Source of the DNA: an uncultured Candidatus Saccharibacteria bacterium
GTDB taxonomy: Bacteria > Patescibacteriota > Minisyncoccia > Phycocordibacterales > UBA9973
Direction of reading: 5' to 3'
Assembly (NCBI GenBank): GCA_964404925.1
Contig: CAYOLW010000005.1
Location: forward strand, 5,458 to 69,457
Length of the DNA stretch: 64,000 bases
The translations under genes were made by a program, and so were the position numbers. Every line of letters begins with the position of its first letter. Positions within the stretch are counted from its first letter, which is position 1. Below the pieces are notes generated by a model. The model was not told the DNA's origin. It worked only from the letters and a program-made list of their open reading frames with translations, and did not search any database. This document shows, piece after piece, positions 9,435-37,151 of the stretch.

Positions 9435-9477
9435 ATATATATAATACCACAGAGTTTGGTGTATCGGCTTTGATATA

Positions 9478-9506
9478 TTTACAATATATCACATATGATA
9501 TATAAT
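9478..9506 (+). promoter_or_regulatory. near-consensus promoter TTTACA-17-TATAAT 7 nt upstream of the HTH-MurA ATG (leaderless)
   Basis: TTTACA 9478-9483; TATAAT 9501-9506; ATG 9514; no SD. Confidence 0.55.
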
Positions 9507-9513
9507 ATTCTCC

Positions 9514-20588: not shown

Positions 20589-21770
20589 TCATATTACCAC
20601 TCTTTTGATTTTTGGGTTCAAGCGATAAAAACGCTTAATAATAGGGTTAATTCTGGTAACAATCTCATAGTTAATAGTATCAGCATCTTGAGCCAGCATA
20701 TCAGCCTCGGCATAATGTCCGTGTGATCCACCAATTATGTCTATTTCATCCCCTGGTTTAGCCCCAGTTCCGGTCAAATCTACCATAACCATATCCATAC
20801 ATACAGTACCAATAATTTTAACCTTTTTACCATGAACAATAAAAACACCTTTCCTCGAAAGCGCTCGCGGGTATCCATGCCAATACCCAACCGGCACAAT
20901 ACCTACTACAGAGTTTCTTTTTAATTCTTCGGTTAAGTCATAACCCACCTTGGCCCCCTTGGGTAATTGCTTTGTTTCAGTGATAATCGACTTCCAAGAA
21001 AGCACCGGATGAAGTTTGTATTTTTTATTCATGACATTTTTAAGTTCACGAGAAGACCATAGCCCATATGAACCAATACCCACCCGTACCATATCATAAT
21101 GTAAGTCCGGAAAAAACATCGTCGAAGAAGAAGCACATAAATGTTTCAGGAATTTAAATCCAGCTCTTGAAAAAGCCTCGCTCCATACCTCAAGCTCACG
21201 TGCTTGCTGGTAAGTAAATTTTCTACCAGAGAGTGCTTCACCCACAGCCAAGTGGCTATACAAACCCTCTACACTGACAGAAGAAGACTGCTTTAAAATA
21301 TCAACTACTAGTGCAAGGTCTTCTTTCAAGAATCCTTGTCGCCTTAACCCGGTATCAGATTTAATATGTACTTTTAATTTATTTTTTAATTTTAATTTTT
21401 TTAAACAAACCAATGACTCATGGCTAGAAATAGTTACAGATATATCAAGGTTAGACGCTTCTTTAAAATACTCTGGGGAAACATAACCGAACACCAATAT
21501 GGGTGTTTTTATTTTTGCTTGTCTAATTTCTAAAGCTTCTTCAAAAGAATCCACTCCCAGAAATTGTGCACCCAGTGCCACTAATTCCTTGGTCATAGGT
21601 AAAAGCCCATGCCCGTAAGCATTAGATTTAACTACTGGCATTAGAATTGTTTTTTTATTTAGTAAACTTTTGAAAAGTTTGAAATTATGTTCAATAGCCT
21701 TGCGGTCAAGCTCTATCCAAGTTCGTAACTTGCTTTTTTCTTTTTTAGACAGAATTCTAGTACTCGGCAT
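20589..21770 (-). CDS. alr: alanine racemase
   Basis: PLP-Lys motif VVKSNAYGHG; C-terminal beta domain; start chosen at MPSTRIL (21770) to avoid a 68-nt overlap with ddl. Confidence 0.8.
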   Translation of the reverse strand: MPSTRILSKKEKSKLRTWIELDRKAIEHNFKLFKSLLNKKTILMPVVKSNAYGHGLLPMTKELVALGAQFLGVDSFEEALEIRQAKIKTPILVFGYVSPEYFKEASNLDISVTISSHESLVCLKKLKLKNKLKVHIKSDTGLRRQGFLKEDLALVVDILKQSSSVSVEGLYSHLAVGEALSGRKFTYQQARELEVWSEAFSRAGFKFLKHLCASSSTMFFPDLHYDMVRVGIGSYGLWSSRELKNVMNKKYKLHPVLSWKSIITETKQLPKGAKVGYDLTEELKRNSVVGIVPVGYWHGYPRALSRKGVFIVHGKKVKIIGTVCMDMVMVDLTGTGAKPGDEIDIIGGSHGHYAEADMLAQDADTINYEIVTRINPIIKRFYRLNPKIKRVVI

Positions 21771-24141
21771 TTTGGATAATAGTTTCGAGTAATTCTTTTG
21801 GATAAAGAGGTTTCTTCTCAGCAAGACCCTGATGATACAGCACGGTTGATGGCGTCAACCCAGGCAATGTGTTCACTTCTATTACCAGCAATTCCCCGCT
21901 TTGAATATTCATAAAAGCATCAATTCTTGCATAGCCAGTAAGGCCAATCTTTTGCGCCAATTCTTCAATTAATTTTTTAGTTTTCTTGATTGCTTTTTGC
22001 TTAACCACACTACCCGGTGGTGGAGTGAGGTTAACCCCAGTACCGCCTTGGAACTTCTCCTCCAGAGAAAGCACTTCACCTTCGGCAATAGTGATACTTG
22101 GATTCAGCGCATGATATTTACCTTTGTGTTCAAATAAACCCACCGTTACTTCAACCCAACCTGTTACCTTTTTGTGTTTGATTTTATTATCAACCACTCT
22201 AACCTTGTCAGTATAAATAAACTTTTCAAACATTATATCGTTTAATTTTGTTGTAGGCATTTCAACGATAGCATCCTGACTGGTTAATGTTCCAACAGGT
22301 ATGAAACTCGTCGCTTCAAACAGAAATTGCAAGTAGTTCATGAGGTCTCGTTCGTTGAATAAATGCGCCACACCCGTTGAGCATCCATCATCCTTGGGTT
22401 TAACTATCACAGTATTGGCTCCGAGTTGTGCCTTTAAAGCACGCCAAAACGCACTCACGTTTTGCAATTTCTCAAGCTCTTTGACTGTATACACTGCTTG
22501 CTCAGCAATACTCAGTCCTTTTATTTTAGCTTTTCTTATAAATTCACCAGTGTCCCATTTGTCCATACAAAGTCTAGAAACATGGGAATTAGAACCATTA
22601 TGTTTTACTTTGTTTTTCTCCAAAATAGCCTGGATTGTGCCGTTTTCACCAGCACCACCGTGTAGACCTAAGAATATAAATTTAGATTTATCTATCAATT
22701 CTTCCATAGTTATTTGTTCAGGTCTGAAGAAATCTTCTGTTGCATCACCAGGCTCAAGCATCAACTCTTCTTTGATTGGTTTGACCATATTGACTACTTT
22801 ATCGTAATTCTTTTTTGCTTCTTTTACGTTATCCAGGATTTCTTCGACGGTGTGATTTAGTATGAGCGCATAGGGTAGTTTCCATATTTCTCCTTTGAAA
22901 CCAAGCAAGTGTGGGATTGGTTCGTAGATCTTAGATTTCTTGAGCTTGAGCCACACATTGGTACCACTCATCAGTGATACTTGTCGCTCGGATGTATCCC
23001 CGCCGAATAGTACGGATACAGGTTTTCTTTTAAGATTTTTCTTGGATTCAATATTTGTATTAAATTTTACCCCTTGCCTCTGTGCAGAATTTTTAATAAC
23101 AAAACGCAAAAGCTCTCCGTGGCTCATTCCAATACGAGAAGACTGCTGGAACAAGAAACTATTTTGCTCCATTCCTGAGATCGTATTAAAGTCAGAGAAC
23201 CATATGTTGCCATCCGGCATCAACCATCCATCAAAACGAGCAAAATCTTTCATTCCAAAAAGAGAAAAAATTTGAGATGCTTGCACACGAATATTATTAA
23301 TCACTTCTTCGGAAAAACGTGGAGGGCAGTGGTATTTAACCTGGTTAGTTGGTAGATATTTCTTACGAAAGTCAAAAATCCTACCTTCATGGTAAGTCAT
23401 TTCAATTTCGGATGGTAACAATGCTACCGGTAGACCAAGTTTGTTTTGTAAAACTATTACAGTAAACTCGCGTCCAGTTGCAAAAGGCTCTAACACAACG
23501 CGTGTGTCCATGCGTTTAGAAAAAATGATATTTGCCTTTTCTAATGCTTCTTTGGGATTGTGGACAGTGAAAACCCCAATACTTGATCCAGAGGTAGCTG
23601 GCTTTACTATTGCTTTATCTATTTTATTTTTCTTAAAGAATTCCTTGATAACCTTTTCATTATCTGATGAATAAATCTTCAATAGCGCAGAAGGCAAAGT
23701 ATGGAATCCATTTTGACTTAATGTTTGGTTTGAATTGTGTTTATCAAAAGCTTCTTTGCAAGACTTAGATCCAGATCCAACAAACGGGACATTGTGTTTT
23801 TCTAAAAATTTCTGTATTTCTCCGTCTTCACCAAAGGCTCCATGCATAGCCGGGAAAACAATATCTACTGATTTCAACAATTTAACTAAGGATGTATTAT
23901 TTAACTCCTTCGCATGATTAGCTAATTTAAAATCAAAATCTGATGGGGTATTAGAATAAAGTTGCGCTTTTGATATCTTGTAAGCTTTCTTTTTTATATC
24001 AAAATATATTGGTACTACTTCAATACTGTCAGCATCCAAGTGATCAAGCACACTCCGAGCCGAATTAAGCGATATGCCCCTCTCGAGTGATGGTCCACCG
24101 GTCAAAACTGCAACTTTGAATTTCTTTGTTTTTTCAGTCAT
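21757..24141 (-). CDS. ddl: tandem-fused double D-alanine--D-alanine ligase (two complete Ddl/ATP-grasp modules in one 794-aa polypeptide)
   Basis: Module 1: KFKVAVLTGGPSLERGISLNSARSV ... KPATSGSSIGV ... SDFNTISGME. Module 2: KPVSVLFGGDTSERQVSLMSGTNV ... KPKDDGCSTGV ... ARIDAFM ... EVNTLPGLTPSTV. Confidence 0.75.
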   Translation of the reverse strand: MTEKTKKFKVAVLTGGPSLERGISLNSARSVLDHLDADSIEVVPIYFDIKKKAYKISKAQLYSNTPSDFDFKLANHAKELNNTSLVKLLKSVDIVFPAMHGAFGEDGEIQKFLEKHNVPFVGSGSKSCKEAFDKHNSNQTLSQNGFHTLPSALLKIYSSDNEKVIKEFFKKNKIDKAIVKPATSGSSIGVFTVHNPKEALEKANIIFSKRMDTRVVLEPFATGREFTVIVLQNKLGLPVALLPSEIEMTYHEGRIFDFRKKYLPTNQVKYHCPPRFSEEVINNIRVQASQIFSLFGMKDFARFDGWLMPDGNIWFSDFNTISGMEQNSFLFQQSSRIGMSHGELLRFVIKNSAQRQGVKFNTNIESKKNLKRKPVSVLFGGDTSERQVSLMSGTNVWLKLKKSKIYEPIPHLLGFKGEIWKLPYALILNHTVEEILDNVKEAKKNYDKVVNMVKPIKEELMLEPGDATEDFFRPEQITMEELIDKSKFIFLGLHGGAGENGTIQAILEKNKVKHNGSNSHVSRLCMDKWDTGEFIRKAKIKGLSIAEQAVYTVKELEKLQNVSAFWRALKAQLGANTVIVKPKDDGCSTGVAHLFNERDLMNYLQFLFEATSFIPVGTLTSQDAIVEMPTTKLNDIMFEKFIYTDKVRVVDNKIKHKKVTGWVEVTVGLFEHKGKYHALNPSITIAEGEVLSLEEKFQGGTGVNLTPPPGSVVKQKAIKKTKKLIEELAQKIGLTGYARIDAFMNIQSGELLVIEVNTLPGLTPSTVLYHQGLAEKKPLYPKELLETIIQNAEY

Positions 24142-24237
24142 TTTTTTGCAAAAAATTTAATCTAATATACCTTTATTTTACAAAACAAAATAGCAAAAAG
24201 CAAAGCTAAAGGCTCAAATTAGGTATTTGTTGCTAAA

Positions 24238-24999
24238 TTATCTAATTTGTAAAATAGTACTTGCTAAACTCTTTGGCACACTGGTGAGGCTTAATGCGCC
24301 TTTTTTAGTTACAAGGACCATGTCCTCTATCCGGATACCACCCCAGCCTTTCAGGTATATGCCTGGCTCAATAGTCATCACTACACCTTCTGGTAATACG
24401 TCCTCGCTTTTTGGTTTAAAATTCGGCCACTCATGGATAACAGTACCTACACCATGACCCAATCCATGCTGGAAATTGTCTTTATATTTTTTTGCCAGAA
24501 ATGCCCGAGCAGATTTATCTATGACCTTACATCTACGTTCTCCTTTATTAATAGCCACATAAGCCCTATCCATAGCTGACAGTACATCTGTATATACTTT
24601 TTTCTGCTTAGCAGAAGGCTCACCCCAGAAATAAGTGCGGGTCATGTCTGAACAGTAGTGCTTGATAGTAGTACCAAAATCAAACATTATAATAGCTCCC
24701 CCGCCTCCTCGGCGGGCAGGCTTTTTTAATCTAGTCTTGCCAGGTACATGATGAATATTCGCTGCATTTTTACCAAAAGCCACGATAGGATTAAAAGACA
24801 GAACAGGTGCGTTATATTTTATAAATTGCTTTTTAATGAAGTCCGCAACTTCTATTTCGGTGATACCATTTTTTAAAAAGTTTAAAGCATCTCCTAATAC
24901 CCTCTCGGATATCCTCTGAGCTAGCACAATATTAGCAACCTCTTCTTTGGTTTTTACTGCACGGATTTCATGAACTAATTGTGTTTTGTTGCTAGACAT
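24238..24999 (-). CDS. M24-family metallopeptidase (Xaa-Pro aminopeptidase / MetAP-like catalytic 'pita-bread' domain only)
   Basis: Metal ligands FDFGTTIKHYCSDMTRT (D,D), HGLGHGVG (H), IEPGIY (E), IRIEDMV (E); unusual GGGG insert. Confidence 0.7.
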   Translation of the reverse strand: MSSNKTQLVHEIRAVKTKEEVANIVLAQRISERVLGDALNFLKNGITEIEVADFIKKQFIKYNAPVLSFNPIVAFGKNAANIHHVPGKTRLKKPARRGGGGAIIMFDFGTTIKHYCSDMTRTYFWGEPSAKQKKVYTDVLSAMDRAYVAINKGERRCKVIDKSARAFLAKKYKDNFQHGLGHGVGTVIHEWPNFKPKSEDVLPEGVVMTIEPGIYLKGWGGIRIEDMVLVTKKGALSLTSVPKSLASTILQIR

Positions 25000-26050
25000 T
25001 AACTTTATTTTTTAATGATAACAAGCAAAGTTTATACAGAACCCTGGCACCTACGTTGCCATCCCATTCATCTTCTCCTGGTGCAACTTCAGACAAATCA
25101 AACCCTATGATTTGTTTACCACTTTGTAAAACTTTTTCAAATAAAAATATTATCTCATCAAGAGAAAAACCACCAACTACTGGCGTGCCAGTATTTGGTG
25201 AAAGGTATGGTGAGAGTCCATCTATATCAAAAGATATATAAACCTTCTCAGGTAATTCATTTACAATATTCTCGCACACCTTCCCCCATGTCGAGCCAGT
25301 AAATAAAGCTTTTCTTAATTCATACTCAGTAAACATTTTAACCCGACCATCTTCGCGATCCACCAAATCTTGTTCACTTTTTGAAAAATCGCGAATACCT
25401 ACTTGAACTAATTTATCTACTTGTTTTATTTTAAGTGCATTATAAAAAATAGAAGCATGTGAGTAGGTAAATCCTTCATATGCTTCACGTAAATCTGCGT
25501 GTGCATCAATATGCAAAATTCCAAAATTTTTATGCTTCTCAGCAAGCGCTTCCATGTATCCAAGCGGAGTACTGTGATCTCCACCCAATAATCCTACAAA
25601 TTTGCCTTGGTTTAATAAATCAGTAGTTATCGCTTTTACTTTTGATTTAAAATCTTCGCAGGATTTATTGATTTGCGACAAAAGTTCATTATCAATCTTG
25701 CCTTCTGTATATTTGGTCAAATAATCATCTACTTTGGCACGAGTTTCTATGTTTGATTTCTCTATATTTACATCTTTTTGTAAAATTGCCACACCCTCTC
25801 GCCAAGCAGTTGGACATAGTGGATCATATAGATCTATCTGTTGTGATGCTTCAAGCACTGCATCTGAACCCTCAACTGTACCAGTGGCATATGATACTGT
25901 TGCTTCCCAGGGTAGTGGTACAATTACAAGTTCTGATTCAGCAACATCAAACGGTAGACCAAAAATACCATGGTCTCTTAACCCGTTTTCATTTTCATTA
26001 AAATTTCTTAACTTTTCTTCTCTAATTTCTTTTCTTTTTTGTTCTTCCAT
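24992..26050 (-). CDS. speB: ureohydrolase family protein, likely agmatinase (putrescine-forming)
   Basis: GLLGGDHSTPLG, HIDAHADLRE, SFDIDGLSPYLSPNTGTPVVGGFS (Mn-binding DAHxD / DxDxxDP motifs). Confidence 0.65.
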   Translation of the reverse strand: MEEQKRKEIREEKLRNFNENENGLRDHGIFGLPFDVAESELVIVPLPWEATVSYATGTVEGSDAVLEASQQIDLYDPLCPTAWREGVAILQKDVNIEKSNIETRAKVDDYLTKYTEGKIDNELLSQINKSCEDFKSKVKAITTDLLNQGKFVGLLGGDHSTPLGYMEALAEKHKNFGILHIDAHADLREAYEGFTYSHASIFYNALKIKQVDKLVQVGIRDFSKSEQDLVDREDGRVKMFTEYELRKALFTGSTWGKVCENIVNELPEKVYISFDIDGLSPYLSPNTGTPVVGGFSLDEIIFLFEKVLQSGKQIIGFDLSEVAPGEDEWDGNVGARVLYKLCLLSLKNKVNV

Positions 26051-26204
26051 GCGTTTGTTTTATGTTAATAAACCTTACTTAAACTCTAGCACAATTTTTT
26101 GGAGATTCTCTATCTTGTCCTTACTGTCTATTTTTATACCTTCTTTTTTATAAAGTGCCATATAGATAATGCGATTTTTAGTACGCGTTCACTAAAGGTC
26201 ATTT

Positions 26205-27389
26205 TTATGACAACCTCTCTTTGAAATCTTTGTAATCAAATTCACGGATAACTTTTATTTCTCTTTCTTCATTCATGAGCGCGATGGAGGGTAGATTTAC
26301 ACCGTTAAAAGTATTGTTTTTAACCATGGTATAAATTGCCATATTGAGGAAGACAACTTTCTGTCCAATTTCAAGCTTGGTCGGGAAAGAATAGTCCCCA
26401 ATCACATCCCCAGTCAGGCATGTTGGGCCAACCAGACGATATATATTTTCATTTGAATCTTTGGCAAATTTAACACCCAGAATACGAGGTTGGTATGGAA
26501 TTTCTAAAACATCCGGCATGTGGCAAGTCGGTGACACATCAAGCACTGCAATATCCATGCCGTTGTGCAAAATATCAACCACACTACCCACGAGTACACC
26601 AGCATTCAATGCTACAGCCTCCCCTGGCTCAAGGTATACAGTCAAATGAGGATAACGAGATTTGAAATCATTAAGCGTGTCTTTTAGAAGTTCAAGGTTG
26701 TAATCATCACGAGTGATATGGTGTCCGCCACCAAAGTTCACCCATTTCATTTCAGATAAAAATTCACCAAATTTAGATTCAAAAACTGCCAAACTACGGA
26801 CGAATGCTTCAGCACTGGATTCACATAAATTATGAAAATGCAGTCCTTCTAATCCGTCTACACTGTTCGGCTCAAAATTATCCCGAGTTACACCAAAATG
26901 TGAATTGGATTTTGATGGATCGTACATCTCTACCTCAGCTTCCCTGTGTTCAAGATTTACCCTCATGCCACATGAAGCACCTTTTTCTAGAACAATATCT
27001 TTAAACTTTTTCCATTGAGAAAAAGAATTGAAAACAAGGTGGTCTGCGTATTTTAGATATTCATGTATATTTTCTTCTGTATATGAAGGAGAAAAAGCAT
27101 GGGTTTCCTTGCCAAATTCTTCGTGGCCTAGACGTGCTTCAAAAACTGAGCTTGCCTCGCTGCCAGATAAATACTTCTTGGCAATATCAAAAGTCGAAAA
27201 CATCGAGAACCCTTTGAGCGCTGCTAAAACCCGAACCCCAGTATCCTGCTCTAAAGTATTTAAAATATCTAAATTACTTTCTAGCTTTTCTTCTGAAACC
27301 ACGTACGCTGGGGTTGCCACCTTGGCAAAGTCATCCGTCTGCCAACCCTCCTCACTCACCCACGGTTCGATAAATTTTTCTTCGTTCAT
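26205..27389 (-). CDS. nspC: carboxynorspermidine/carboxyspermidine decarboxylase (PLP-dependent)
   Basis: LKGFSMFSTFDIAKKYLSGSEASSVFEARLGHEEFGKETHAFSPSY closely parallels the NspC N-terminal region; about 390 aa. Confidence 0.8.
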   Translation of the reverse strand: MNEEKFIEPWVSEEGWQTDDFAKVATPAYVVSEEKLESNLDILNTLEQDTGVRVLAALKGFSMFSTFDIAKKYLSGSEASSVFEARLGHEEFGKETHAFSPSYTEENIHEYLKYADHLVFNSFSQWKKFKDIVLEKGASCGMRVNLEHREAEVEMYDPSKSNSHFGVTRDNFEPNSVDGLEGLHFHNLCESSAEAFVRSLAVFESKFGEFLSEMKWVNFGGGHHITRDDYNLELLKDTLNDFKSRYPHLTVYLEPGEAVALNAGVLVGSVVDILHNGMDIAVLDVSPTCHMPDVLEIPYQPRILGVKFAKDSNENIYRLVGPTCLTGDVIGDYSFPTKLEIGQKVVFLNMAIYTMVKNNTFNGVNLPSIALMNEEREIKVIREFDYKDFKERLS

Positions 27390-27476
27390 AATAATTATAA
27401 TTTTTAAAAAGAATCTTTTCGAATGGTCTGGTGAATTGATCCGAGGACCTGAGAAAAGATTACTTTTTAAAAATAA

Positions 27477-28736
27477 CTAATAATTCTTCTTAAGTGCAGC
27501 TGGTAAATCCTTCAATTTCTTTACTACTGTTGTTAGTCCAGTTTTAGCCATTTCTTCTATGTATATTTTAGGGTCAAAAGATTTGTCTTCAGTATTTTTT
27601 ACCCCCACTCCACCCCATTTACCTTGTAGTACAAGCTTGGCAGTAGTAACTGTTGGTATTGCAGTTGTATAGCCTATAGCATTACCATTGGTTTCCTTGA
27701 AGGCTTTCTGGTGGTCGCAAACGTTGTAGATGTACATGTATTGCTTCTTGCCTTTCTTGGTTCCAGAAACAATGTTTCCGATGTTAGTCTTGCCTTTGTA
27801 TCCAGCATTGAAATCAGCACCTGTTGGGAGTATCTTTTTCAAGAATTTTACTGGCACGACTTTTTTACCATCATAATCAACCTCATCAATACGAGTCATA
27901 CCTACTTCGTAAAGCACACGGAGGTAGGTCAGGTACGCTGGTGAAAATGTCATCCAGAAACGAATCTGCTTGAGTCCAGGAATATGTTTTGGAATAGTTT
28001 CTAATTCTTCATGGTACATGAGGTATGGAGTGAATTTGCCCGCTTCTGGGAAATCAAATTCAAAATACGCTGCATCTTCGTCAATCAGCCTGCCACGTTT
28101 TACCCACTTACCATTTTTCCAATATTCAATAGGAAGTATTAATTCACGTAGATTAATCTCTGGATCAAAATTAGGTGCGAATTTAATTTTCTTGTCCTTG
28201 CTGCCGCCATTACAATCCAAGATATCAATAGTTTCTATTTTATCAAAAAGGTAGTCTCTGGCATAAGCTGAATAAATATTGGATACTCCAGGATCAAAAC
28301 CTGAACCTAAAATACCAAGTAGTCCCTTTTTCTTCCAATCATCGTTTTTTGCTAGTTGGAGTTTGTATGAAAATCCGTACTTTTCCGGATGTTCATAACA
28401 CGCAGTATCAATATAATTAACCCCATATTCATAGCAAGCATCCATTACAACCAAGTTGTCATACGGTGCACCCCAGTTAATAACTAACGTAGGTTCAACC
28501 CGAGACAGCAAACCCATAAAAAATTCTTTATTACCTACATTACCTTCGTGGATATGCAGTTTCACTTTGTTTTTAGACTTTTTCAATATTGAATCTCGAA
28601 CTTTTTCCATTTTAGAGAGTGTCCTCGACACTACATAGATCTCAGAGAAAATTTCTGGCGTCTGTGCCATTTTATGTAGACCAACTGAACCCACATTACC
28701 ACAACCGATTACCAATATTTTGTTAATTGTATTCAT
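27477..28736 (-). CDS. carboxynorspermidine/carboxyspermidine dehydrogenase (saccharopine dehydrogenase family)
   Basis: Rossmann ILVIGCGNVG; ILGSGFDPGVSNIYSAYA; KFAPNFDPEINLREL; AIGYTTAIPTVTTAKL; 419 aa. Confidence 0.8.
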   Translation of the reverse strand: MNTINKILVIGCGNVGSVGLHKMAQTPEIFSEIYVVSRTLSKMEKVRDSILKKSKNKVKLHIHEGNVGNKEFFMGLLSRVEPTLVINWGAPYDNLVVMDACYEYGVNYIDTACYEHPEKYGFSYKLQLAKNDDWKKKGLLGILGSGFDPGVSNIYSAYARDYLFDKIETIDILDCNGGSKDKKIKFAPNFDPEINLRELILPIEYWKNGKWVKRGRLIDEDAAYFEFDFPEAGKFTPYLMYHEELETIPKHIPGLKQIRFWMTFSPAYLTYLRVLYEVGMTRIDEVDYDGKKVVPVKFLKKILPTGADFNAGYKGKTNIGNIVSGTKKGKKQYMYIYNVCDHQKAFKETNGNAIGYTTAIPTVTTAKLVLQGKWGGVGVKNTEDKSFDPKIYIEEMAKTGLTTVVKKLKDLPAALKKNY

Positions 28737-28794
28737 TGCTTTTTCCTTTAATTATTATATATTTACAAGGTAAGTTTAACTTCATTTACTTAGC

Positions 28795-30117
28795 ATGTCA
28801 AAGAAAATAATAGTCAACAAATTTGGTGGCGGCATACTCAAAATAGGTCTAATTCCTCATATTGAAAAAAGACTCAAAGAAGAAATGCGAAGTGGGTACA
28901 CACCTGTATGTGTAGTTTCAGCACTGCCTGGAATTACCGACCACCTACTTTATATGTCTCATGGAGGAAATTCAGCAAAAGAAAAGAAACTCCTTGCCGC
29001 ACGTCACCGAGAAACAATCAATGAAATTATTAAAAATCCTGATACAAGGGATGCCTGCTGGAAAGAAGTTACTCGCCTATTGGCTGAAGTTACAAATGAA
29101 ATAGATAAACTCGCCGGCAAAAATATGAGCGCAAAAAACGAGGACAAAGTAGTGGCCTATGGCGAGAAGCTTTCTGCTATACTTTTCACCCACTATGTAC
29201 GGTCTATTGGATATGATGCTTCTCCAATATTAGCCGAAGACATACCCATAGTGACAGATGATAATTTCAAAAATGCTAACATTGAATACAAAACATCAGC
29301 TAAAAACATTTCTAAGAAATTGTCTCAAAGTAATAAAATAATAGTTATACCTGGATTCACTGGCACTACCAAAGAAGGGTATACCACTACACTGGGCCGT
29401 GGCGGTACGGACACCACTGCTTGCTTTATCGGTGCGGCACTTAATGCAGAAAAAATAATATTATGGAAAGATGTGGGTGGTGTAATGTCTGCCGATCCAC
29501 GTATTGTAAAAAATGCCAAGACCGTGCCTTTCATTAATTATCAAGAAGCAGAAGAAGCCGGCAAGATAATCCACGACAAAGCTATTCAGTATGTAAAAAT
29601 CCATAATACGCAGATAGAAATAGCTTCACTAGTAAACCCAAAACAAAAGACCGTAATTGGTAAAGAAATAAAATCGAAAAAGGGCACAAAAATAGTGAGT
29701 TATAAAAAGAATCTAGTTTTCTTTATTGTGACCGATGAAGAGAAAAAAGAAACAGACATGCTGGCCGTGGTAAACCAAGCTTGTTCTAAAAACAACGTAG
29801 ACATACTGCTCATCAGCAACACTCGATACAACCTGCAAATAGTAGCCGATAACCAAAATGGCAAAGCAGCAGAAGTCTTTAATGAGATAAAGAAACGAAT
29901 TCCAAAAGTCACCATGTCTCCAGTATCCATGGTATTCCTAGTTGGTAATTTCGAAATGCAAGACGTGAATGAATTCAATACACTCCTAATTAAACAAAAA
30001 ACAGATATGGAAATCAGTGCCTTCTTCTACAAGAATTGCACCAGACTAGAAGCAGTAATCAAAGACCAAAATATAGAGAAAATCGTTAACGCATTACATA
30101 ATAAATTTATAAAATAA
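28795..30117 (+). CDS. lysC: aspartate kinase
   Basis: KFGGGILK; TTTLGRGGTDTTACFIGAALNAEKIILWKDVGGVMSADPR; C-terminal ACT-like region. Confidence 0.85.
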   Translation: MSKKIIVNKFGGGILKIGLIPHIEKRLKEEMRSGYTPVCVVSALPGITDHLLYMSHGGNSAKEKKLLAARHRETINEIIKNPDTRDACWKEVTRLLAEVTNEIDKLAGKNMSAKNEDKVVAYGEKLSAILFTHYVRSIGYDASPILAEDIPIVTDDNFKNANIEYKTSAKNISKKLSQSNKIIVIPGFTGTTKEGYTTTLGRGGTDTTACFIGAALNAEKIILWKDVGGVMSADPRIVKNAKTVPFINYQEAEEAGKIIHDKAIQYVKIHNTQIEIASLVNPKQKTVIGKEIKSKKGTKIVSYKKNLVFFIVTDEEKKETDMLAVVNQACSKNNVDILLISNTRYNLQIVADNQNGKAAEVFNEIKKRIPKVTMSPVSMVFLVGNFEMQDVNEFNTLLIKQKTDMEISAFFYKNCTRLEAVIKDQNIEKIVNALHNKFIK

Positions 30118-30118
30118 A

Positions 30119-31210
30119 ATGGACAAAAAATTAAAAGTTGGAATATTGGGGGCAACAGGAATGGTTGGGCAGAATTATATTAGACTACTCGAGAATCATC
30201 CTTGGTTTGATGTGGTATATGTAGCTGCATCGGCAAATTCAGCTGGAGTAACTTTCAGCGAGTCAGTGAAAGGTCGCTGGCAAATGCACTCACCTATTCC
30301 AGTAAATGTTGCAGGACTCATTGTAGAAGATGTGGCAAGTGTAGAAAAAGCAAAAGAAGTTTGCGATTTTGTTTTCTCAGCTTTTGAAATGCCAGATAAA
30401 GAACTGATAAAAGAAACAGAAAAGAAATACGCTGAAGCTGGGCTACCTGTAGTATCCAATGCTTCTGCCAACAGATGGACCGAAGATGTGCCCATGCTCA
30501 TCCCTGAGATAAATTCGGATCATGCAGATATAATAGAAACACAAAAGAAAAATCATGGCTGGGACCAAGGATTCATAGCGGTAAAGCCAAACTGTTCACT
30601 CCAGAGTTATCTAACTCCTATCTATGCACTTCTACAAGCAGGATATGAAATAGAAAAAATTATGATCACTACCATGCAGGCAGTTTCAGGTGCTGGCTAC
30701 CCTGGAGTGCCTAGCCTCGACATGATAGATAATATTGTGCCATTTATCGGTGGCGAAGAAGAAAAGACAGAAAAAGAACCCTTAAAGATTTTGGGCAAGA
30801 TTGTAGATGGAAAGTTTTTAAATCGAGAAGGTTTGAAAATCTCTGCTACTTGTACTCGTGTGCCAGTGACTGACGGACACACAGCAACTGTAAACATTTT
30901 ATTTAAAGATAAAAAACCAACCAAGGAACAAATTTTAGAGATCTGGAAAAATTTCAAAAGTTTTCCGCAGGAACTTAATCTTCCTTTTGCCCCAGTACAA
31001 CCAATACACTACACCACAGAAGACAATAGACCTCAACCAAGCAAAGACAGAGATACTGATAAAGGTATGGCCGTTACCGTCGGCCGCCTACGTGAATGCA
31101 ATGTTTTCGACTACAAATTTGTAGCTCTTTCTCACAATACCGTCCGCGGTGCTGCTGGAGGCGGAATACTAAATGCAGAATTATTAGTCAAAAAAGGATA
31201 TATCAAATAA
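30119..31210 (+). CDS. asd: aspartate-semialdehyde dehydrogenase
   Basis: KVGILGATGMVGQ; catalytic Cys in KPNCSLQSY; C-terminal SHNTVRGAAGGGILNAELLVKKGYI. Confidence 0.85.
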   Translation: MDKKLKVGILGATGMVGQNYIRLLENHPWFDVVYVAASANSAGVTFSESVKGRWQMHSPIPVNVAGLIVEDVASVEKAKEVCDFVFSAFEMPDKELIKETEKKYAEAGLPVVSNASANRWTEDVPMLIPEINSDHADIIETQKKNHGWDQGFIAVKPNCSLQSYLTPIYALLQAGYEIEKIMITTMQAVSGAGYPGVPSLDMIDNIVPFIGGEEEKTEKEPLKILGKIVDGKFLNREGLKISATCTRVPVTDGHTATVNILFKDKKPTKEQILEIWKNFKSFPQELNLPFAPVQPIHYTTEDNRPQPSKDRDTDKGMAVTVGRLRECNVFDYKFVALSHNTVRGAAGGGILNAELLVKKGYIK

Positions 31211-31214
31211 ATTT

Positions 31215-31571
31215 ATGTTTGATTTCAATCAACCGCCAAAAAAAGAAAATCATGCAGTAAAGAAAATTACTGAGGAGGATTTGAATGAATTGCTTAGACC
31301 AATACCACCCCAAATACAACAAAGTGCTTTATTCCAAGCAGCACTTTCGTATTTAGCACACAACGCAGGGAGTTTAAAGGAAATCATGGGATCAATGAGC
31401 GGTATGATAAAAATAGAGGAACTTGCACGAACACTAAAGGAAAGCCCCCTTGATGGTACAACAAAAATGCTCATTGGTTACAACTTAGCAGAACTACAAC
31501 AAAATCCAGTAATGATGGGCCATGTTGACCAGTATCTAACAGCAACAGCAGATTTTTACATACAGGATTAA
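31215..31571 (+). CDS. hypothetical small protein
   Basis: ORF only; 4 nt after asd. Confidence 0.3.
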   Translation: MFDFNQPPKKENHAVKKITEEDLNELLRPIPPQIQQSALFQAALSYLAHNAGSLKEIMGSMSGMIKIEELARTLKESPLDGTTKMLIGYNLAELQQNPVMMGHVDQYLTATADFYIQD

Positions 31572-31614
31572 TTCGACAAATTAGAATATTGGTCAAATTT
31601 TTTAAATACAAAAT

Positions 31615-31642
31615 TTGCTGAAGCTACAAAGTATTATATAAT
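31615..31642 (+). promoter_or_regulatory. promoter TTGCTG-16-TATAAT, 7 nt before the ATG at 31650 (leaderless)
   Basis: TATAAT at 31637-31642. Confidence 0.5.
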
Positions 31643-31649
31643 TCTATCG

Positions 31650-32096
31650 ATGAGAAAACACAGTTTACCATTTATCATAACCTCTAATGTTTTTTTGTTT
31701 TTTCCTATTGTCGCGTCGCTATATGCCCAGGAATGGATATACTCTATATTTAGCTTTTTTCTACTTATAGCCTCTGTGGGGTTTCATTACACTCACTACT
31801 ATAATCAAAAAAGTTTTTCTCTCACCCGTTTTTTGTTTGGAGGTAAAAAATATAAAAATGAAAAGACGTTTCGTCTATTAGATTGGTCCCTTGCTGCAAT
31901 CGGTGCTTTATATGTATTTTATTTCATTTACGTTTCTCCTGCGGTTTATATTTTAAAACTAACTTCAGCCTTACTTTTCTTTGCCTCTTTTGTATTTTTT
32001 TTATTAAACTACAAAGTTGGTAACTACAAAAAATACCACCCATGGTTCCATGTATTTACTCAGACGCTCCTTGGGTTTATCGTATTGTTTCTATAA
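31650..32096 (+). CDS. hypothetical 4-TM membrane protein
   Basis: Hydrophobic ORF. Confidence 0.35.
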   Translation: MRKHSLPFIITSNVFLFFPIVASLYAQEWIYSIFSFFLLIASVGFHYTHYYNQKSFSLTRFLFGGKKYKNEKTFRLLDWSLAAIGALYVFYFIYVSPAVYILKLTSALLFFASFVFFLLNYKVGNYKKYHPWFHVFTQTLLGFIVLFL

Positions 32097-32117
32097 GTAG
32101 AAATTGATTCTTTTGTA

Positions 32118-33209
32118 TTAGAATCCTTCTTTTTTTAACTGCTCAACGATATCTCTTTCTTTTTTAGAAAGTTTGTTTGGTATTTTAATATGAGTACGAA
32201 TTAGTAGGTCACCACGTCTGCCTTTGTGTGGTACACCCTTGCCCTTAACTCGGAGAATTTCACCCACAGCAAGGCCCTCTGGTATAGTGACCTCAATTTT
32301 ACCGTCCAGTGTATCTATGGTGTGCTTGGTACCGAGTAATGCATCGGTAAGCTTGATGTCCAGATTCATAATTAGATCAACACCCTCTCGATGCAAATGT
32401 GCGTGTGGAGTCACCCGGAGTTTGATATACAAATCTCCAGCTGTTCCATGGGACACTGCTTCACCCGCACCACTCATACGCAGGGTGTCGCCATTATTAA
32501 TACCCTCTGGTATGTTAATAGTTATTTCTTCTTCTGTACGATGCACTCCTTTACCCTTACAATCATGACAAGGTTCTTTTGGTATTTCTCCTCTGCCGGC
32601 ACAGACGTCACACACACGAGTACTTGATATGGTTCCCAGTATAGTACGTTTAGCTTCTTGAATTTTTCCTTTACCGTGACAGTTTTTGCAAGCATCCATT
32701 TTAGTGCCTGGTTTTGCACCCTTACCGCTACATGTTTTACAAGTTCCAGTTTTAGTTAAAAATACTTTTTTGGAAACACCAAAAACTGATTCTGCGAAAG
32801 TTATTTGAATTTCGGTAGAAATATCACGGCCTTTATTTTTCTGCGCCCGACCGCCACCAGCACCGAAGAAATCACTGAAAATATCGTTCAGATCAAAATC
32901 AGCATCCCCGCCAAATCCGCCCTGGAAGCCAGAAAAATCAAAACCCTCAAATCCACCGAATCCGCCACCGCTTTGGCCACCACCAAATCCGCCCATATTC
33001 TGATAATTTGAGCCAAATTGGTCATACTGAGCACGTTTCTGATCATCTGAAAGGGTCTGATATGCCTCATTAACCTCCTTGAACTTCTTCTCATCCCCCT
33101 CCTTTTTGTCAGGGTGATATTTGTGGGCCAACTTATAAAAAGCCTTCTTAATTTCTTCTTTAGAAGAACCTTTATTTACCCCTAATATTTCATAGTAGTC
33201 TTTGGACAT
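32118..33209 (-). CDS. dnaJ: molecular chaperone DnaJ
   Basis: J-domain with HPD ([10 protein letters not shown]), G/F-rich linker, four CxxCxGxG zinc-finger repeats. Confidence 0.9.
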
Positions 33210-33269: not shown

Positions 33270-34724
33270 TTAAATCATCGGTTCGGCTTCTTCAGTTTTT
33301 TCTTCAGTTGAGCTATTTGATTTACCAGAAATTGCTTCTTTTTCTTCTTTACTGCGGATGATGGTAGCCTCTTCTTCTTCAATCAGTCTCTGAGCCGCGT
33401 CCTTGGTAATAGCAAATTGATGTCGGGAAGCAGCCTTGATCTCGTCGCGATAGGACGGATGAGTTGGCGGCAATACACGCAGTGTCTCTGCTGAGAATGG
33501 GTCATAGCTTTCGCCATCAATAGTCATTTTGATATAGAATTCACCGACGGCCAGGTTGATCATGTCCTTTACTCCGAACAGCGGATCGAATTCAGATTTA
33601 AGCCTCGTCGCATCTTCACCACCCACACGGAAACTAATTATACTTCCGGTATTACCAAGCACCGCCTGATAAATCTTGGGGTTAATTTGACCCACGTACT
33701 GATGTGCCATTGTTAGGTTCAATCCGTACTTACGCGCCTCTGACAGAATATTCTCAAATGTCTGAGTAACCACGTTTTGAAACTCGTCTACATATATATA
33801 AAAATCTTGTCGCATATGCTCGGGAATATTAGCCCGCTCCATACCCGCCTGTTTAATCTTGGTCAAGAACATTGAGCCAAAGAAAGATGAATTTTCTTCA
33901 CCAATACGGCCTTTGGACAAATTGATTAACACAATTTTCTTTTCATTCATTAGTTGCGCAATGTCAATTTTGTTTTCCTTCTGTCCAAAAATATTACGAA
34001 GCAACGGATCAGAGAGGAATTGACCAAGCTTGTTCACCAACGGAATAATAGCGTCGGTGTCGAACTTCTCGGACCAATCGGCGAATTCGATAGCGAAGAA
34101 TCTCTTCACCATGTCGTCTTGGATATATTCCACCACCTTCTGACGGTAGTTACGGTCGGTCAACATAGAAATCATTCCACGCATGGTAGCGTATGGATAG
34201 TCAAGTAGTGCCAAACAGGTAAAACGAAACACGTGCTCGAGTCTCGGGGTCCAGTTAGAACCGAACTGCTTTTGGAACACCTCAATCAAACCTTGGGTCA
34301 ATTGAAATTTGAAACCAGGGTCAACATTAGAAAGCGGATTGAAAGATGCTGGGAATTCAGAATCCGAAGGGTCCAAGATGCAAACATCATTAATGCGTTC
34401 TTTGGGAATGTAGTCGAGCATCGAGTCTATCACATCACCGTGCGGGTCAATGAGACACAGTCCATGCCCATAAGTTATGTCTTGGCGAAGGAAAAGTTCT
34501 AGGAGTTTAGTCTTACCCACACCGGATTTACCAATGATATACAAGTGGCGACGACGGTCGACTCTTTTGATGCCAAAAATATACTTTTTCTCTTCAAGCG
34601 CAGCCACATAGTTGGTCCGTCCAATAAAAGACACATCCTCAGGGGCCACTTTACCATATGCTGGCAATTCTGGTGGTGGTGGACCGTATTTGATTATCTG
34701 AACTCGATTGGGTTTGGACGTCAT
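33270..34724 (-). CDS. soluble P-loop NTPase of the HerA/FtsK/TraD-TraG superfamily (paralog of 37144-39528)
   Basis: Walker A IIGKSGVGKTKL; LIDPHGDV; Walker B YIYVDEFQN; paralog alignment (FGIKR.DRR.H.YI.GKSG.GK, LVN.SKGRIGE.NS, MAHQY). Confidence 0.55.
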   Translation of the reverse strand: MTSKPNRVQIIKYGPPPPELPAYGKVAPEDVSFIGRTNYVAALEEKKYIFGIKRVDRRRHLYIIGKSGVGKTKLLELFLRQDITYGHGLCLIDPHGDVIDSMLDYIPKERINDVCILDPSDSEFPASFNPLSNVDPGFKFQLTQGLIEVFQKQFGSNWTPRLEHVFRFTCLALLDYPYATMRGMISMLTDRNYRQKVVEYIQDDMVKRFFAIEFADWSEKFDTDAIIPLVNKLGQFLSDPLLRNIFGQKENKIDIAQLMNEKKIVLINLSKGRIGEENSSFFGSMFLTKIKQAGMERANIPEHMRQDFYIYVDEFQNVVTQTFENILSEARKYGLNLTMAHQYVGQINPKIYQAVLGNTGSIISFRVGGEDATRLKSEFDPLFGVKDMINLAVGEFYIKMTIDGESYDPFSAETLRVLPPTHPSYRDEIKAASRHQFAITKDAAQRLIEEEEATIIRSKEEKEAISGKSNSSTEEKTEEAEPMI

Positions 34725-34761
34725 ATTTGATATTAGATGTTATAAGTGTATCATAATAAAT

Positions 34762-35457
34762 ATGAAAATTCATAGATTCATAGGCGATTTTGACTTTCGG
34801 AAAAACACCATAAATATTGAGGACCCAGAGATAATCAAACAGCTAAGGAACGTGCTACGCATGGAGCCTGGAGAGACTATTATCCTGTTTGATGGTAAAG
34901 GTATGGAGGCTGAAGTAGTAATAGAATCCATAAACAGTAAAAGCATTTTGGGGAATATAATAAGCAAAAAGGAGGTTTCAGGTGTAAGTAAATCTGTATC
35001 ACTTTATTTAGCGATTTTAAAGAAAGAGAATTTCGAACTAGCGGTACAGAAATCCGTAGAATGCGGAGTGTCCAGAATAATCCCAGTTATAACAGAACGC
35101 ACAGTAAAGACAGGACTCAATATAGAAAGGATTAATAAAATTATTCGCGAAGCAGCAGAACAATGCGGACAAAGTTTGTTACCAGATATTCTGCCCTCTA
35201 TGCCCTTCAACGACGCACTAATACAAGGACGAGAAAGCGAGGACAAAATCCTATTTCATTTAGTACGAGAAGAATACACACCAGCCAAAGATACAAATTC
35301 TATAAGTATTTTTATTGGACCAGAGGGTGGATTTACTGATAAAGAAATTGAACTAGCAAAAAAATCCGACTACACTATAGCTTCTCTCGGTGCACTCACC
35401 CTCCGTGGCGAAACTGCTGCCATCATCGCCACCTACCGAGCCGTTCAAGGTATCTAG
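34762..35457 (+). CDS. rsmE: 16S rRNA (uracil1498-N3)-methyltransferase RsmE
   Basis: HRFIGDFDF N-terminus; IILFDGKG...; SPOUT C-terminal IGPEGGFTDKEIELA; start taken at MKIHRF (the track began 54 nt upstream). Confidence 0.8.
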   Translation: MKIHRFIGDFDFRKNTINIEDPEIIKQLRNVLRMEPGETIILFDGKGMEAEVVIESINSKSILGNIISKKEVSGVSKSVSLYLAILKKENFELAVQKSVECGVSRIIPVITERTVKTGLNIERINKIIREAAEQCGQSLLPDILPSMPFNDALIQGRESEDKILFHLVREEYTPAKDTNSISIFIGPEGGFTDKEIELAKKSDYTIASLGALTLRGETAAIIATYRAVQGI

Positions 35458-37151
35458 TAAACTTCCTGCTGATAACATTTTTCACAATACACTATCTCGG
35501 GGCGATCTGGGGCGTAGCTGGTTTTCATGCCGGTATTACACTTGGAACAATTGCGGTTGTATAGCCTCCATTTATTGATTCTATTTATTCTTCTTTCATG
35601 ACGACAGTTAGGGCACTCTCTCGGCAACGGTAAAGTAAACCTACGCAGTAACTCCAATTCACCAAAAGCTATCCGGTAAGGCTTGGAACATTTTTTACAA
35701 GAAACGACTTCTTTGGTTATAGTATCTTCTACCTCAGAGATACTATCAGGTAAATCTTCGGGCTTTATCGTGGGTGTATGTTCTCCACTTTTAACTTCAG
35801 AATATATAAAACCACTTTTTGCTATTTCTTCTTTAGACATTGGGAAATACTGTATAGCATAAGACGCATTGTATGCAAAAGGAGATAAATCATAAGGAAA
35901 GAAATCACCATACCGAAAAACCCGGCCCTTGGTGTCTACATAAGGATCTTGATCCATACTAGCGATGATTTCATCTCTTAGTTTAAAATACTCTTCTTTA
36001 GAATATTGCTTGTTTAAAATACAATATTGCTTATTACGCAAACCAACACAACCAAAACAATCTTTGGAATTAACCACATACATTGAATACTCAACATTTC
36101 GAACATTATTCCATACACCAGAACAATATTTGATTTGATAGCCACCCTCTCCGGCAGTTATCGAATCGATACTTTGTTCAAGTCCATTACCCCATTCTCC
36201 AATATCATAATTATCTTTAAACGGGGGCAACGTTATAAATTGGCAATATCTAGAGTCTTCAGACATAACTGTCATATAGCAATCATGCACATTCTTAGAA
36301 GAATACACATATTCACCAGTCGAGTTAACATTCATGCGTCCATAGACTGCACGCTTTGGGAATTTGTTCCAAAAATTAAATATTTCTCCTTGAATAGCTT
36401 GATGGGCAGAATATCTATCAAGGTTCATTTCTTGTATTTTTTTCTTATATTCTTCTTTAGAATAAGGCTGATTAAATATGTGGTAACTTTTGTTTCTCAA
36501 ATTCACACAGCCAAAACAATTTGTACAAGCAACACAATCCTTGGAATACCACACGTCCACTGATTCTGGGCAATTTTCCGAGAAAAAAATATGTGAACCA
36601 TCTCCTCCGATACATTCATAAGCAAATTCTGTCTTATTGATCATCAAACAGTCCATTACCTCCTTGGAGTGGTTAATTACAGTAGAATAGTAAACATTCT
36701 CACAAAAATCAGCATTAAAAAGTAGGTAGCAATTTTTGCATGCACCAGCATGGTTGATGTATTCGCTATTAACTAAAGTCGTATAAGAAACTATTAGGTT
36801 CATCTTTGGTGTATTCAGCATCAAATCTTTAAGTTGGTTAAAGAAATTAATATTGGGATTATAGTCCAGTGCGTATTCCCCACCATCCCATTTATCGCCC
36901 CACCAACACGAACCACAATATATTGATTTATGTACTTCTGGATCAAAGATAGTAACTACGTTTTTACTACACAAACCACAAACGCTTTTATATAAAGTCC
37001 TTTCATTACGAAAAGACATCCTTTTTTGAATTCTGCATTCCGGGCAAAAAGTCGGTGCAGGAACTTTGATTTTCTCGTAGAAAGAAAAATCCTCGGGTTC
37101 AATATTGAAATCCTTTTTACAATTCTGACAATTTTTAGTTTCTTTATTCAT
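35454..37151 (-). CDS. large (565 aa) cysteine-rich protein with multiple zinc-ribbon/treble-clef-like CxxC pairs and internal repeats
   Basis: About 45 Cys; N-terminal CQNCKK...CPECR, C-terminal CKKCSK...CPNCRH...CSKCNT...CEKC; internal repeat C[FV]GCV[NG]LRNK[SQ]Y.I.N.(P/Q)YSKEEY occurs twice; 8-nt overlap with the upstream ATPase gene. Confidence 0.5.
   Translation of the reverse strand: MNKETKNCQNCKKDFNIEPEDFSFYEKIKVPAPTFCPECRIQKRMSFRNERTLYKSVCGLCSKNVVTIFDPEVHKSIYCGSCWWGDKWDGGEYALDYNPNINFFNQLKDLMLNTPKMNLIVSYTTLVNSEYINHAGACKNCYLLFNADFCENVYYSTVINHSKEVMDCLMINKTEFAYECIGGDGSHIFFSENCPESVDVWYSKDCVACTNCFGCVNLRNKSYHIFNQPYSKEEYKKKIQEMNLDRYSAHQAIQGEIFNFWNKFPKRAVYGRMNVNSTGEYVYSSKNVHDCYMTVMSEDSRYCQFITLPPFKDNYDIGEWGNGLEQSIDSITAGEGGYQIKYCSGVWNNVRNVEYSMYVVNSKDCFGCVGLRNKQYCILNKQYSKEEYFKLRDEIIASMDQDPYVDTKGRVFRYGDFFPYDLSPFAYNASYAIQYFPMSKEEIAKSGFIYSEVKSGEHTPTIKPEDLPDSISEVEDTITKEVVSCKKCSKPYRIAFGELELLRRFTLPLPRECPNCRHERRINRINKWRLYNRNCSKCNTGMKTSYAPDRPEIVYCEKCYQQEVY

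Follow-up and report, generated by a model that had tools for sequence, protein, structure and literature searches.

The stretch of DNA analyzed here, 64,000 nucleotides of contig CAYOLW010000005.1 from an uncultured Candidatus Saccharibacteria bacterium (Patescibacteriota) and referred to below as the window, carries a contiguous block of five genes that we regard as a likely spermidine biosynthesis island. Three genes with predicted roles in polyamine synthesis lie on the minus strand, and the genes for aspartate kinase (AK) and aspartate-semialdehyde dehydrogenase (ASD), which would supply the precursor L-aspartate beta-semialdehyde (ASA), diverge from them across a short spacer. An earlier interpretation made without database searches (the sequence-only reading) had described the same five genes with AK-ASD divergent from the polyamine arm, and a check of the open reading frames (ORFs) of the window found all five intact and in the same places. 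The features of the block are as follows, with protein lengths in amino acids (aa).

24992 to 26050, minus strand: ureohydrolase (UH), 352 aa; arginase fold, PF00491, 176 bits
26205 to 27389, minus strand: nspC-type decarboxylase (DC), 394 aa; TIGR01047, 469 bits against a cutoff of 409
27477 to 28736, minus strand: dehydrogenase (DH) of the saccharopine dehydrogenase fold, 419 aa; PF03435, 71 bits, and PF16653, 106 bits
28737 to 28794, no strand: divergent intergenic spacer, 58 bp, AT-rich, read from the sequence
28795 to 30117, plus strand: AK (lysC), 440 aa; TIGR00657, 254 bits against a cutoff of 208, and PF00696
30119 to 31210, plus strand: ASD (asd), archaeal/fungal type, 363 aa; TIGR00978, NF006416, PF01118, and PF02774
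31215 to 31571, plus strand: ORF of 118 aa without a Pfam or NCBIfam match, starting 4 bp after asd

Reading away from the spacer, the minus-strand arm runs DH, DC, UH, and on the other arm a single base pair separates AK from ASD. By its location the 58-bp spacer would have to carry promoters for both arms, which might thereby be co-regulated; we infer this role from position only, because a promoter and terminator scan of the spacer gave promoter-like matches no more often than shuffled expectation. No Rfam element was found at an E value of ≤1 over positions 24000 to 32200, and neither a lysine riboswitch nor a T-box precedes lysC. Public records label the proteins as "saccharopine dehydrogenase family protein," "carboxynorspermidine decarboxylase," "agmatinase family protein," and "aspartate-semialdehyde dehydrogenase," and homologs of DH and UH carry the names Candidatus Paceibacterota, Nomurabacteria, Falkowbacteria, and "Patescibacteria group." The organism is assigned to the Paceibacterota, a group of the candidate phyla radiation.

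To establish how widely the arrangement is kept, DH was used to scan one genome per GTDB species, which yielded 19 loci from the candidate phyla radiation (CPR; individual loci are given L numbers below), and their neighbors were identified by a tblastn census. DH is 67 to 94% identical across these 19 species-level loci, and in the relatives DC always lies directly downstream of it. Of the 14 loci that were informative, having enough upstream sequence, 10 (L007, L008, L009, L010, L012, L016, L018, L020, L023, and L024) have AK-ASD divergent from and adjoining DH-DC, and the divergent AK-ASD is not present at the remaining four (L015, L017, L019, and L025). In every related locus an AK ortholog (51 to 61% identity) precedes ASD, and the ASD of the window is 73 to 92% identical to those of CPR relatives bearing the cluster. 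A reciprocal scan of metagenome contigs carrying ASD served as a natural control. Eight low-GC contigs encode an ASD of at least 75% identity; this type of AK (51 to 59%) was found in all seven that include upstream sequence and DH in all five that reach far enough. Among ASDs at 61 to 69% identity, 38 lie directly beside dapA, three belong to AK-homoserine dehydrogenase-ASD operons, and none but that of L051 is accompanied by the polyamine pair. The adjacency of these genes is not due to chance: 10 of the 14 loci share the divergent layout, as does every metagenomic contig that is long enough and encodes a close ASD. The compact ASA-dependent polyamine island that the sequence-only reading had described is supported.

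To assess the content of the surrounding DNA, nearly every ORF of 110 aa or longer across the 64 kb was screened against Pfam, and tblastn was run as well. Neither approach detected dapA, dapB, hom, thrB, thrC, or lysA in the window, confirming the earlier remark that no lysine or threonine context is present there; AdoMetDC and aminopropyltransferase genes were likewise not seen in the window. In 489 kb of CPR DNA, comprising the window and 29 related CPR loci, no homolog of Escherichia coli DapA, DapB, homoserine dehydrogenase, ThrB, or ThrC was found at an E value of ≤1e-4. Conserved synteny, the clade-specific association of ASD, and the absence of dap, hom, and thr genes from the 489 kb thus support the view that AK-ASD is evolutionarily tied to the polyamine genes and not to lysine/threonine genes. 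No relative was seen to retain lysC-asd without polyamine genes, an arrangement that the sequence-only reading had named as unfavorable to its proposal, and relatives lacking UH hold a deiminase/amidase pair.

Two loci outside this pattern were also recorded. L051 (positions 6085 to 11083; metagenomic, GC content of 0.44, from another lineage) repeats the layout of DC-DH divergent from AK-ASD with proteins 40 to 45% identical and an ASD 69% identical to those of the window. Its DH has the signature N/M/E (the signature positions are described below), and downstream lies a fusion of a serine hydrolase and a GNAT acetyltransferase, with no ureohydrolase there; the locus may represent a separate polyamine variant, possibly one that involves acetylation. 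In L002 (10001 to 13038), a DH 77 to 78% identical and a decarboxylase are separated by a PD-(D/E)XK nuclease gene, without AK-ASD, among genes with Por_Secre_tail, CHU_C, and PKD domains, and the DH-DC pair may be horizontally mobile.

The match of AK to TIGR00657 spans residues 4 to 439 of 440, and the protein does not reach the cutoff of the monofunctional-class equivalog TIGR00656 (236 bits against 402). Its closest PDB entry is the AK of M. jannaschii (3C1M), with an alignment that runs through the first ACT domain, and it is predicted to be a monofunctional aspartate kinase that has kept an ACT-type regulatory region at its C terminus. With this region in place, some allosteric control would persist. 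Decay of the ACT region in the window, with loss of regulation, was considered and rejected, as the C terminus is present and full loss is confined to L023 and L024; part of the C terminus is absent from the AK of L018, and the short AKs of L007, L008, and L020 reflect an internal deletion at approximately residues 60 to 100. The AKs of L023 (9005 to 9868, minus strand) and L024 (8858 to 9745, minus strand) are only 287 to 295 aa, a bare kinase domain without the ACT region, which is unusual for the family and suggests an unregulated supply of ASA in those two lineages. ASD exceeds the cutoffs of both TIGR00978 (384 bits against 301) and NF006416 (475 bits against 232) and contains both of its Pfam domains.

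The amine substrate of the pathway depends on DH, as Li et al. (2025) found specificity to be set by the dehydrogenase and not the decarboxylase (PMC11999265). The sequence-only reading had called DH a carboxynorspermidine dehydrogenase acting on putrescine or 1,3-diaminopropane. This identification is probably wrong, as DH scored 327 bits against the cutoff of 800 for the carboxynorspermidine synthase equivalog (NF043000, EC 1.5.1.43), lacks the corresponding signatures, and groups with a different set of enzymes. Its closest PDB entries are 4INA, 8DEB, 4RL6, and 8H4Z (346 to 402 bits); 4RL6 and 8H4Z align over the full length, and both are enzymes assayed as agmatine-specific carboxyaminopropylagmatine (CAPA) dehydrogenases, or CAPADHs (PMC10599626). 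Many homologs known as carboxyspermidine dehydrogenase (CASDH) were shown by Xi et al. (2023) to be such agmatine-specific enzymes, which carry the signature N104/F113/E228, compared with I/W/D in the CASDH of A. tumefaciens and V/E/D in the carboxynorspermidine dehydrogenase (CANSDH) of Vibrio cholerae; N104 binds the guanidine group, and F113 makes a cation-pi contact with the guanidinium (PMC10599626).

An alignment was constructed from the PDB sequences, the CPR homologs, and the CASDHs of P. denitrificans (assayed as putrescine preferring) and S. meliloti, taken from chromids; no Vibrio CANSDH was included in it or in the neighbor-joining tree. Both CASDH references show I/W/D as published, which validates the signature columns, and the CAPADH-group references have N/F/E throughout, save for that of P. 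distasonis, which has Y instead of F. The signature of the window DH is C113/F122/E243 (C/F/E), shared by 111 of 120 CPR homologs; its F and E are of the CAPADH type, and it has neither the I/W/D signature of CASDH nor the V/E/D signature of CANSDH. In the tree the CPR clade branches as the sister of the assayed CAPADH group and does not fall within it, the CASDHs forming the outgroup; DH shares 43 to 48% identity with the CAPADH-group structures versus approximately 37% with the CASDHs. Of the 37 columns that clearly divide the reference groups, the CPR clade follows CAPADH in 18 and CASDH in 8 and has residues of its own in the other 11. Because of the tree, the identities, and this division of columns, DH is best classified in a CPR-specific C/F/E subfamily of its own, closer to CAPADH without being a plain ortholog of it. 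It is probably an NADPH-dependent reductive condensing enzyme of the CASDH/CANSDH/CAPADH family that joins agmatine and ASA.

Residues 25 to 393 of DC cover positions 2 to 380 of the 380-position TIGR01047 (nspC) profile, and with a score above the cutoff DC fits the family named by the sequence-only reading, carboxynorspermidine decarboxylase. DC is accordingly annotated as a putative pyridoxal phosphate-dependent carboxy(nor)spermidine/carboxyaminopropylagmatine decarboxylase of the nspC family.

UH scores best against the agmatinase family TIGR01230 among the curated families but falls short of its cutoff (152 bits against 174), as it does for the agmatinase SpeB model NF002564 (123 bits against 302), and it shares 28% identity with E. 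coli SpeB. An identity as arginase or formiminoglutamase, which the sequence-only reading had itself listed as a possible objection, was rejected on score (100 and 69 bits, respectively, against 152 for agmatinase). The binuclear Mn motifs are complete: GGDHS (156), DAHAD (182), and SFDIDG (273). Two residues past the DAHxD motif lies Arg188, at the position of R151, which together with E60, contributed by the neighboring subunit, forms the published signature of N1-aminopropylagmatine ureohydrolase (APAUH) (PMC10599626). The same Arg is found in 3PZL (DAHSDFR), assayed as APAUH by Xi et al. (PMC10599626), and in 3LHL. The position is occupied by Tyr in E. coli SpeB and by Asn in the guanidinobutyrase GbuA, the proclavaminate amidinohydrolase PAH, and arginase. 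Arg188 is kept in 119 of 120 UH homologs. No solved structure is close to UH (≤85 bits); the protein represents a 352-aa type with an insertion of approximately 30 residues that is seen in CPR genomes; its orthologs (55 to 84% identity) follow the decarboxylase in eight species-level loci. Given the failed agmatinase cutoff and the APAUH Arg, UH is more likely to act last, as a probable Mn-dependent N1-aminopropylagmatine ureohydrolase releasing spermidine and urea, with agmatinase as the alternative. The putrescine-forming first step assigned to it by the sequence-only reading would probably have to be given up.

In the related loci, the genes at the front and back of the cluster vary. Three types of back end were identified: the 352-aa ureohydrolase (L007, L008, L009, L012, L013, L014, L016, L020, and L033); an unrelated-looking 286-aa ureohydrolase, also with the signature Arg (L015 and L022); and a pair consisting of an agmatine-deiminase-like protein and a CN-hydrolase (L004/L010, L011, L019, L025, L036, and L073). 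A deiminase and an amidase constitute the alternative back end of genomes with the CAPA pathway (Xi et al., PMC10599626). At L004/L010 the deiminase pair sits directly upstream of the M24-peptidase/double-Ddl backbone that flanks UH in the window. At the front, a second decarboxylase of the alanine racemase fold adjoins asd in several loci. This is a compact SpeA-like arginine decarboxylase (ADC) of approximately 460 aa in L012, L016, L022, L032, L035, L036, and L073. Those of L012, L016, and L022 score 180 to 214 bits against NF003763 versus 131 to 145 against LysA, and the best PDB matches of the L012 protein, 3NZQ and 3N2O, are both ADCs; the remaining four were assigned by 70 to 87% identity to the L012 protein and by tblastn to E. 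coli SpeA. The decarboxylase of L023 and L024 is a homolog of lysine/ornithine decarboxylase (L/ODC), matching 5GJM with 213 bits and 2PLJ with 209 bits, compared with ≤83 bits for any diaminopimelate (DAP) decarboxylase; its NCBIfam label, "LysA-like," was rejected, as the PDB comparison indicates an L/ODC-like protein. No ureohydrolase or deiminase was found within 10 kb in L023 or L024, and such a locus without a back-end enzyme is coherent because putrescine needs no deguanidination. The search for an arginine or ornithine decarboxylase that the sequence-only reading had suggested found nothing in the window, pyruvoyl-type ADC included, but did identify a SpeA-like ADC or an L/ODC-like gene beside asd in relatives. 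The presence of ADC was correlated with the agmatine route and that of ornithine decarboxylase with the putrescine route by Li et al. (PMC11999265).

Two further kinds of neighbor were observed at the back end. A gene for an EamA/DMT transporter, a candidate carrier of agmatine, arginine, or polyamine, adjoins the ureohydrolase or deiminase in L012 (13691 to 14608, plus strand), L019 (6876 to 7841, minus strand), and L025 (6879 to 7844, minus strand). In the window, a gene at 24238 to 24999 (minus strand), whose start overlaps the end of the UH gene by 8 bp, encodes a short M24 metallopeptidase of 253 aa without the usual N-terminal domain. In relatives it adjoins whichever back-end enzyme occurs, ureohydrolase or agmatine-deiminase-like, and it may be functionally linked or merely part of an M24-Ddl-Alr syntenic backbone.

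Taken together, we consider it likely, if some way from certain, that the block is a self-contained, ASA-dependent spermidine island that uses the CAPA route, bypassing putrescine, with AK-ASD as its own precursor module. AK would convert aspartate to aspartyl phosphate, and ASD would convert aspartyl phosphate to ASA, the aminopropyl donor. DH would then condense agmatine with ASA, using NADPH, to form carboxyaminopropylagmatine; DC would remove CO2 to give N1-aminopropylagmatine; and UH would hydrolyze this to spermidine and urea. The gene order DH-DC-UH is the order of these CAPA reactions. Agmatine may come from an ADC encoded elsewhere in the genome or from import. The dedication of AK-ASD to polyamine synthesis, proposed by the sequence-only reading, is well supported on comparative grounds by the synteny, the link of the ASD clade, and the lack of dap, hom, and thr genes in related loci; its claim to exclusivity is not proven, because the window covers only 64 kb and a DAP/lysine branch could lie elsewhere.

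Several observations count against the CAPA assignment, and some of them would fit an alternative in which UH is a true agmatinase that forms putrescine, DH is a carboxyspermidine dehydrogenase acting on putrescine and ASA, and DC yields spermidine, with AK-ASD still the source of ASA. We consider this alternative rather unlikely. The CAPADH signature is incomplete by one residue of three, as Cys113 replaces N104 throughout the CPR clade, and N104 mutants of the Synechocystis enzyme had a Km for agmatine raised 7- to 150-fold (PMC10599626). Given that 8 of the 37 columns are CASDH-like and another 11 are unique to it, the clade forms a third group and not a set of CAPADH orthologs. The two remaining signature positions, corresponding to F113 and E228, are nonetheless of the CAPADH type with nothing of I/W/D present, and the tree groups the clade with the CAPADHs. 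For UH, agmatinase is both the best curated family and the name used in public records; the protein still misses the equivalog cutoff, and Arg188 is the APAUH signature and not the SpeB residue. The second APAUH position is less certain: mapped without the Sll0228 sequence, the likeliest column for E60 is that of E69 in 3PZL ("NLESY"), where the window has Asp73, within a conserved Q-I-D-L-Y-D motif, and SpeB is gapped. The order DH-DC-UH suits CAPA chemistry, but the window itself encodes no decarboxylase that would make agmatine. A further point comes from L023 and L024, in which a C/F/E DH is paired with an L/ODC-like enzyme and no deguanidinating enzyme; in some lineages at least, putrescine is thus a probable substrate of a C/F/E dehydrogenase, and CAPADH-clade enzymes have weak activity on putrescine. 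These two loci make the assignment of agmatine in the window less secure.

The CAPA reading was also weighed against two explanations that place the genes in other pathways. AK and ASD could be ordinary aspartate-family enzymes serving meso-diaminopimelate/lysine for peptidoglycan (or threonine or methionine), their position reflecting shared use of ASA or mere synteny. In the present lineage the ACT-type C-terminal region of AK is as conserved as the kinase domain, which fits classical amino acid feedback, cell wall genes (Alr, double Ddl, and L,D-transpeptidase) are nearby, and only a 64-kb window of the genome is covered. Against these points, no dapA, dapB, hom, thrB, or thrC homolog was found in the window or the 489 kb of related CPR loci; the present ASD clade goes with the polyamine pair, and it is the more distant ASDs that adjoin dapA or hom. 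The second decarboxylases beside asd are ADC-like or L/ODC-like and not LysA, no lysine riboswitch is present, and the AK regulatory domain is wholly lost in L023 and L024. CPR genomes in general also lack amino acid biosynthesis (PMC12281837), and we regard this explanation as quite improbable. Still less credence, indeed hardly any, is given to the production of sym-norspermidine from 1,3-diaminopropane by a Vibrio-like route of CANSDH and carboxynorspermidine decarboxylase (CANSDC), the norspermidine outcome entertained by the sequence-only reading. DC does pass the nspC model, but that model is blind to substrate; DH falls far below the CANSDH equivalog cutoff (327 against 800) and lacks V/E/D. 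No diaminobutyrate aminotransferase or decarboxylase was detected in the window Pfam survey or, by unbiased clustering, among the recurrent neighbors of the related loci, and the ureohydrolase or deiminase and the ADC of the cluster have no role in a norspermidine route.

A broader proposal can be put forward only tentatively, as a possibility to which we lean somewhat less than to the CAPA reading of the window itself. In Paceibacterota and allied CPR, AK and ASD might be kept solely to supply the aminopropyl donor of spermidine, as the last remnant of the aspartate family in organisms nearly devoid of amino acid synthesis, within a constant four-gene core (AK-ASD/DH-DC) with swappable front and back ends, and the Cys-variant DH might be relaxed, accepting agmatine or putrescine according to the attached module.

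On the far side of asd, the 118-aa ORF is probably cotranscribed with it, and its membership in the pathway is doubtful. It is confined to the present lineage, with a 100% identical copy in L001 (a Logan contig), and is followed at 31650 to 32096 (plus strand) by a gene for a 148-aa predicted membrane protein without a family match. In relatives, the position after asd is taken by MetK (L004/L010, L020, and L031) or the SpeA-like ADC (L012, L016, L032, L035, L036, and L073), and in L007, L008, and L009 DnaJ follows ASD directly with no intervening gene. Elsewhere in the window, the Pfam survey identified CPR-typical housekeeping genes for DprA, TopA, RelA/SpoT, ParB, Alr, a double Ddl, and DnaJ/DnaK/GrpE, as well as type IV secretion system (T4SS)-type coupling ATPases, ribosomal proteins, RpoA, AlaRS, and BipA. 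The double Ddl (21757 to 24141, minus strand) is a 794-aa protein in which the complete D-Ala-D-Ala ligase module, with both its N and C domains, occurs twice in tandem; it adjoins the alanine racemase gene (20589 to 21824); the fusion is kept in L004, L008, and L020. At 33270 to 39528 (minus strand), a 565-aa treble-clef zinc finger protein lies between a pair of TrwB/VirD4-like type IV coupling ATPases of 484 and 794 aa, an arrangement that is partly kept in L004 and resembles the Patescibacteria T4SS of a 2025 preprint. An unusual fusion of 504 aa (9514 to 11028, plus strand) joins an N-terminal XRE-type helix-turn-helix to a MurA/EPSP-synthase fold. At 976 to 2849 (minus strand), a cytochrome b5-like heme-binding protein (174 aa) lies beside a ferric-reductase-type membrane FAD/NAD(P) oxidoreductase (444 aa), an unexpected redox pair for a CPR genome.

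CPR/Patescibacteria are usually portrayed as nearly without biosynthesis, and partial "lysine biosynthesis" calls (lysC and asd) are easily misread; the present analysis suggests that both are part of a spermidine pathway that is complete and strongly conserved. If this is true, endogenous polyamine synthesis would be one of the few anabolic functions that ultrasmall epibionts cannot outsource, and the carboxyaminopropylagmatine route would extend to a phylum that its discoverers did not name. In the literature searched, there was no prior account of an ASA-dependent spermidine pathway in Patescibacteria, of both ASA-forming enzymes physically coupled to a spermidine pathway, of a clade-wide Cys at the DH specificity position, or of exchangeable ends around a constant AK-ASD/DH-DC core. 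Because the pathway chemistry is already known, the advance is one of distribution, organization, and annotation and not of mechanism. The natural series of module swaps and the natural N104-to-Cys variant are open to heterologous-expression assays already in use.

Among known systems, the CAPA pathway of Synechocystis sp. PCC 6803 (Slr0049, CAPADH; Sll0873, carboxyaminopropylagmatine decarboxylase [CAPADC]; and Sll0228, APAUH; PMC10599626) uses the same three enzyme families, which are clustered here. Shared with it are the F113/E228-type DH, sister to the CAPADHs, the APAUH Arg of UH, and, in relatives of the window, the deiminase-amidase swap and a linked ADC. The window differs in the Cys that replaces N104 in a CPR clade forming its own DH subfamily, in the 352-aa UH with its insertion of approximately 30 residues, in the coupling of AK and ASD to the cluster, and in its host phylum, Patescibacteria, which is outside the 15 phyla named by Xi et al. 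(PMC10599626). The systems of CASDH and carboxyspermidine decarboxylase (CASDC; A. tumefaciens and P. denitrificans) and of CANSDH and CANSDC (V. cholerae) have homologous DH and DC and the same donor, ASA. L023 and L024, with an L/ODC-like gene and no ureohydrolase, resemble the CASDH/CASDC route; unlike the dehydrogenases of these systems, the window DH has neither I/W/D nor V/E/D and fails NF043000, and the cluster adds a deguanidinating enzyme. The route of Thermus thermophilus and Thermococcus kodakarensis is like the CAPA pathway in that putrescine is bypassed and an arginase-fold enzyme hydrolyzes aminopropylagmatine last, but its donor is decarboxylated S-adenosylmethionine, transferred by an aminopropyltransferase, and not ASA. 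In ectoine clusters, ectABC(D)-ask, a dedicated aspartate kinase secures the ASA precursor independently of lysine/threonine regulation. There, the kinase alone is duplicated and the genomes keep full aspartate-family pathways, whereas here, in a reduced genome, AK and ASD are both linked to the cluster, apparently with no other aspartate-family enzyme in the vicinity.

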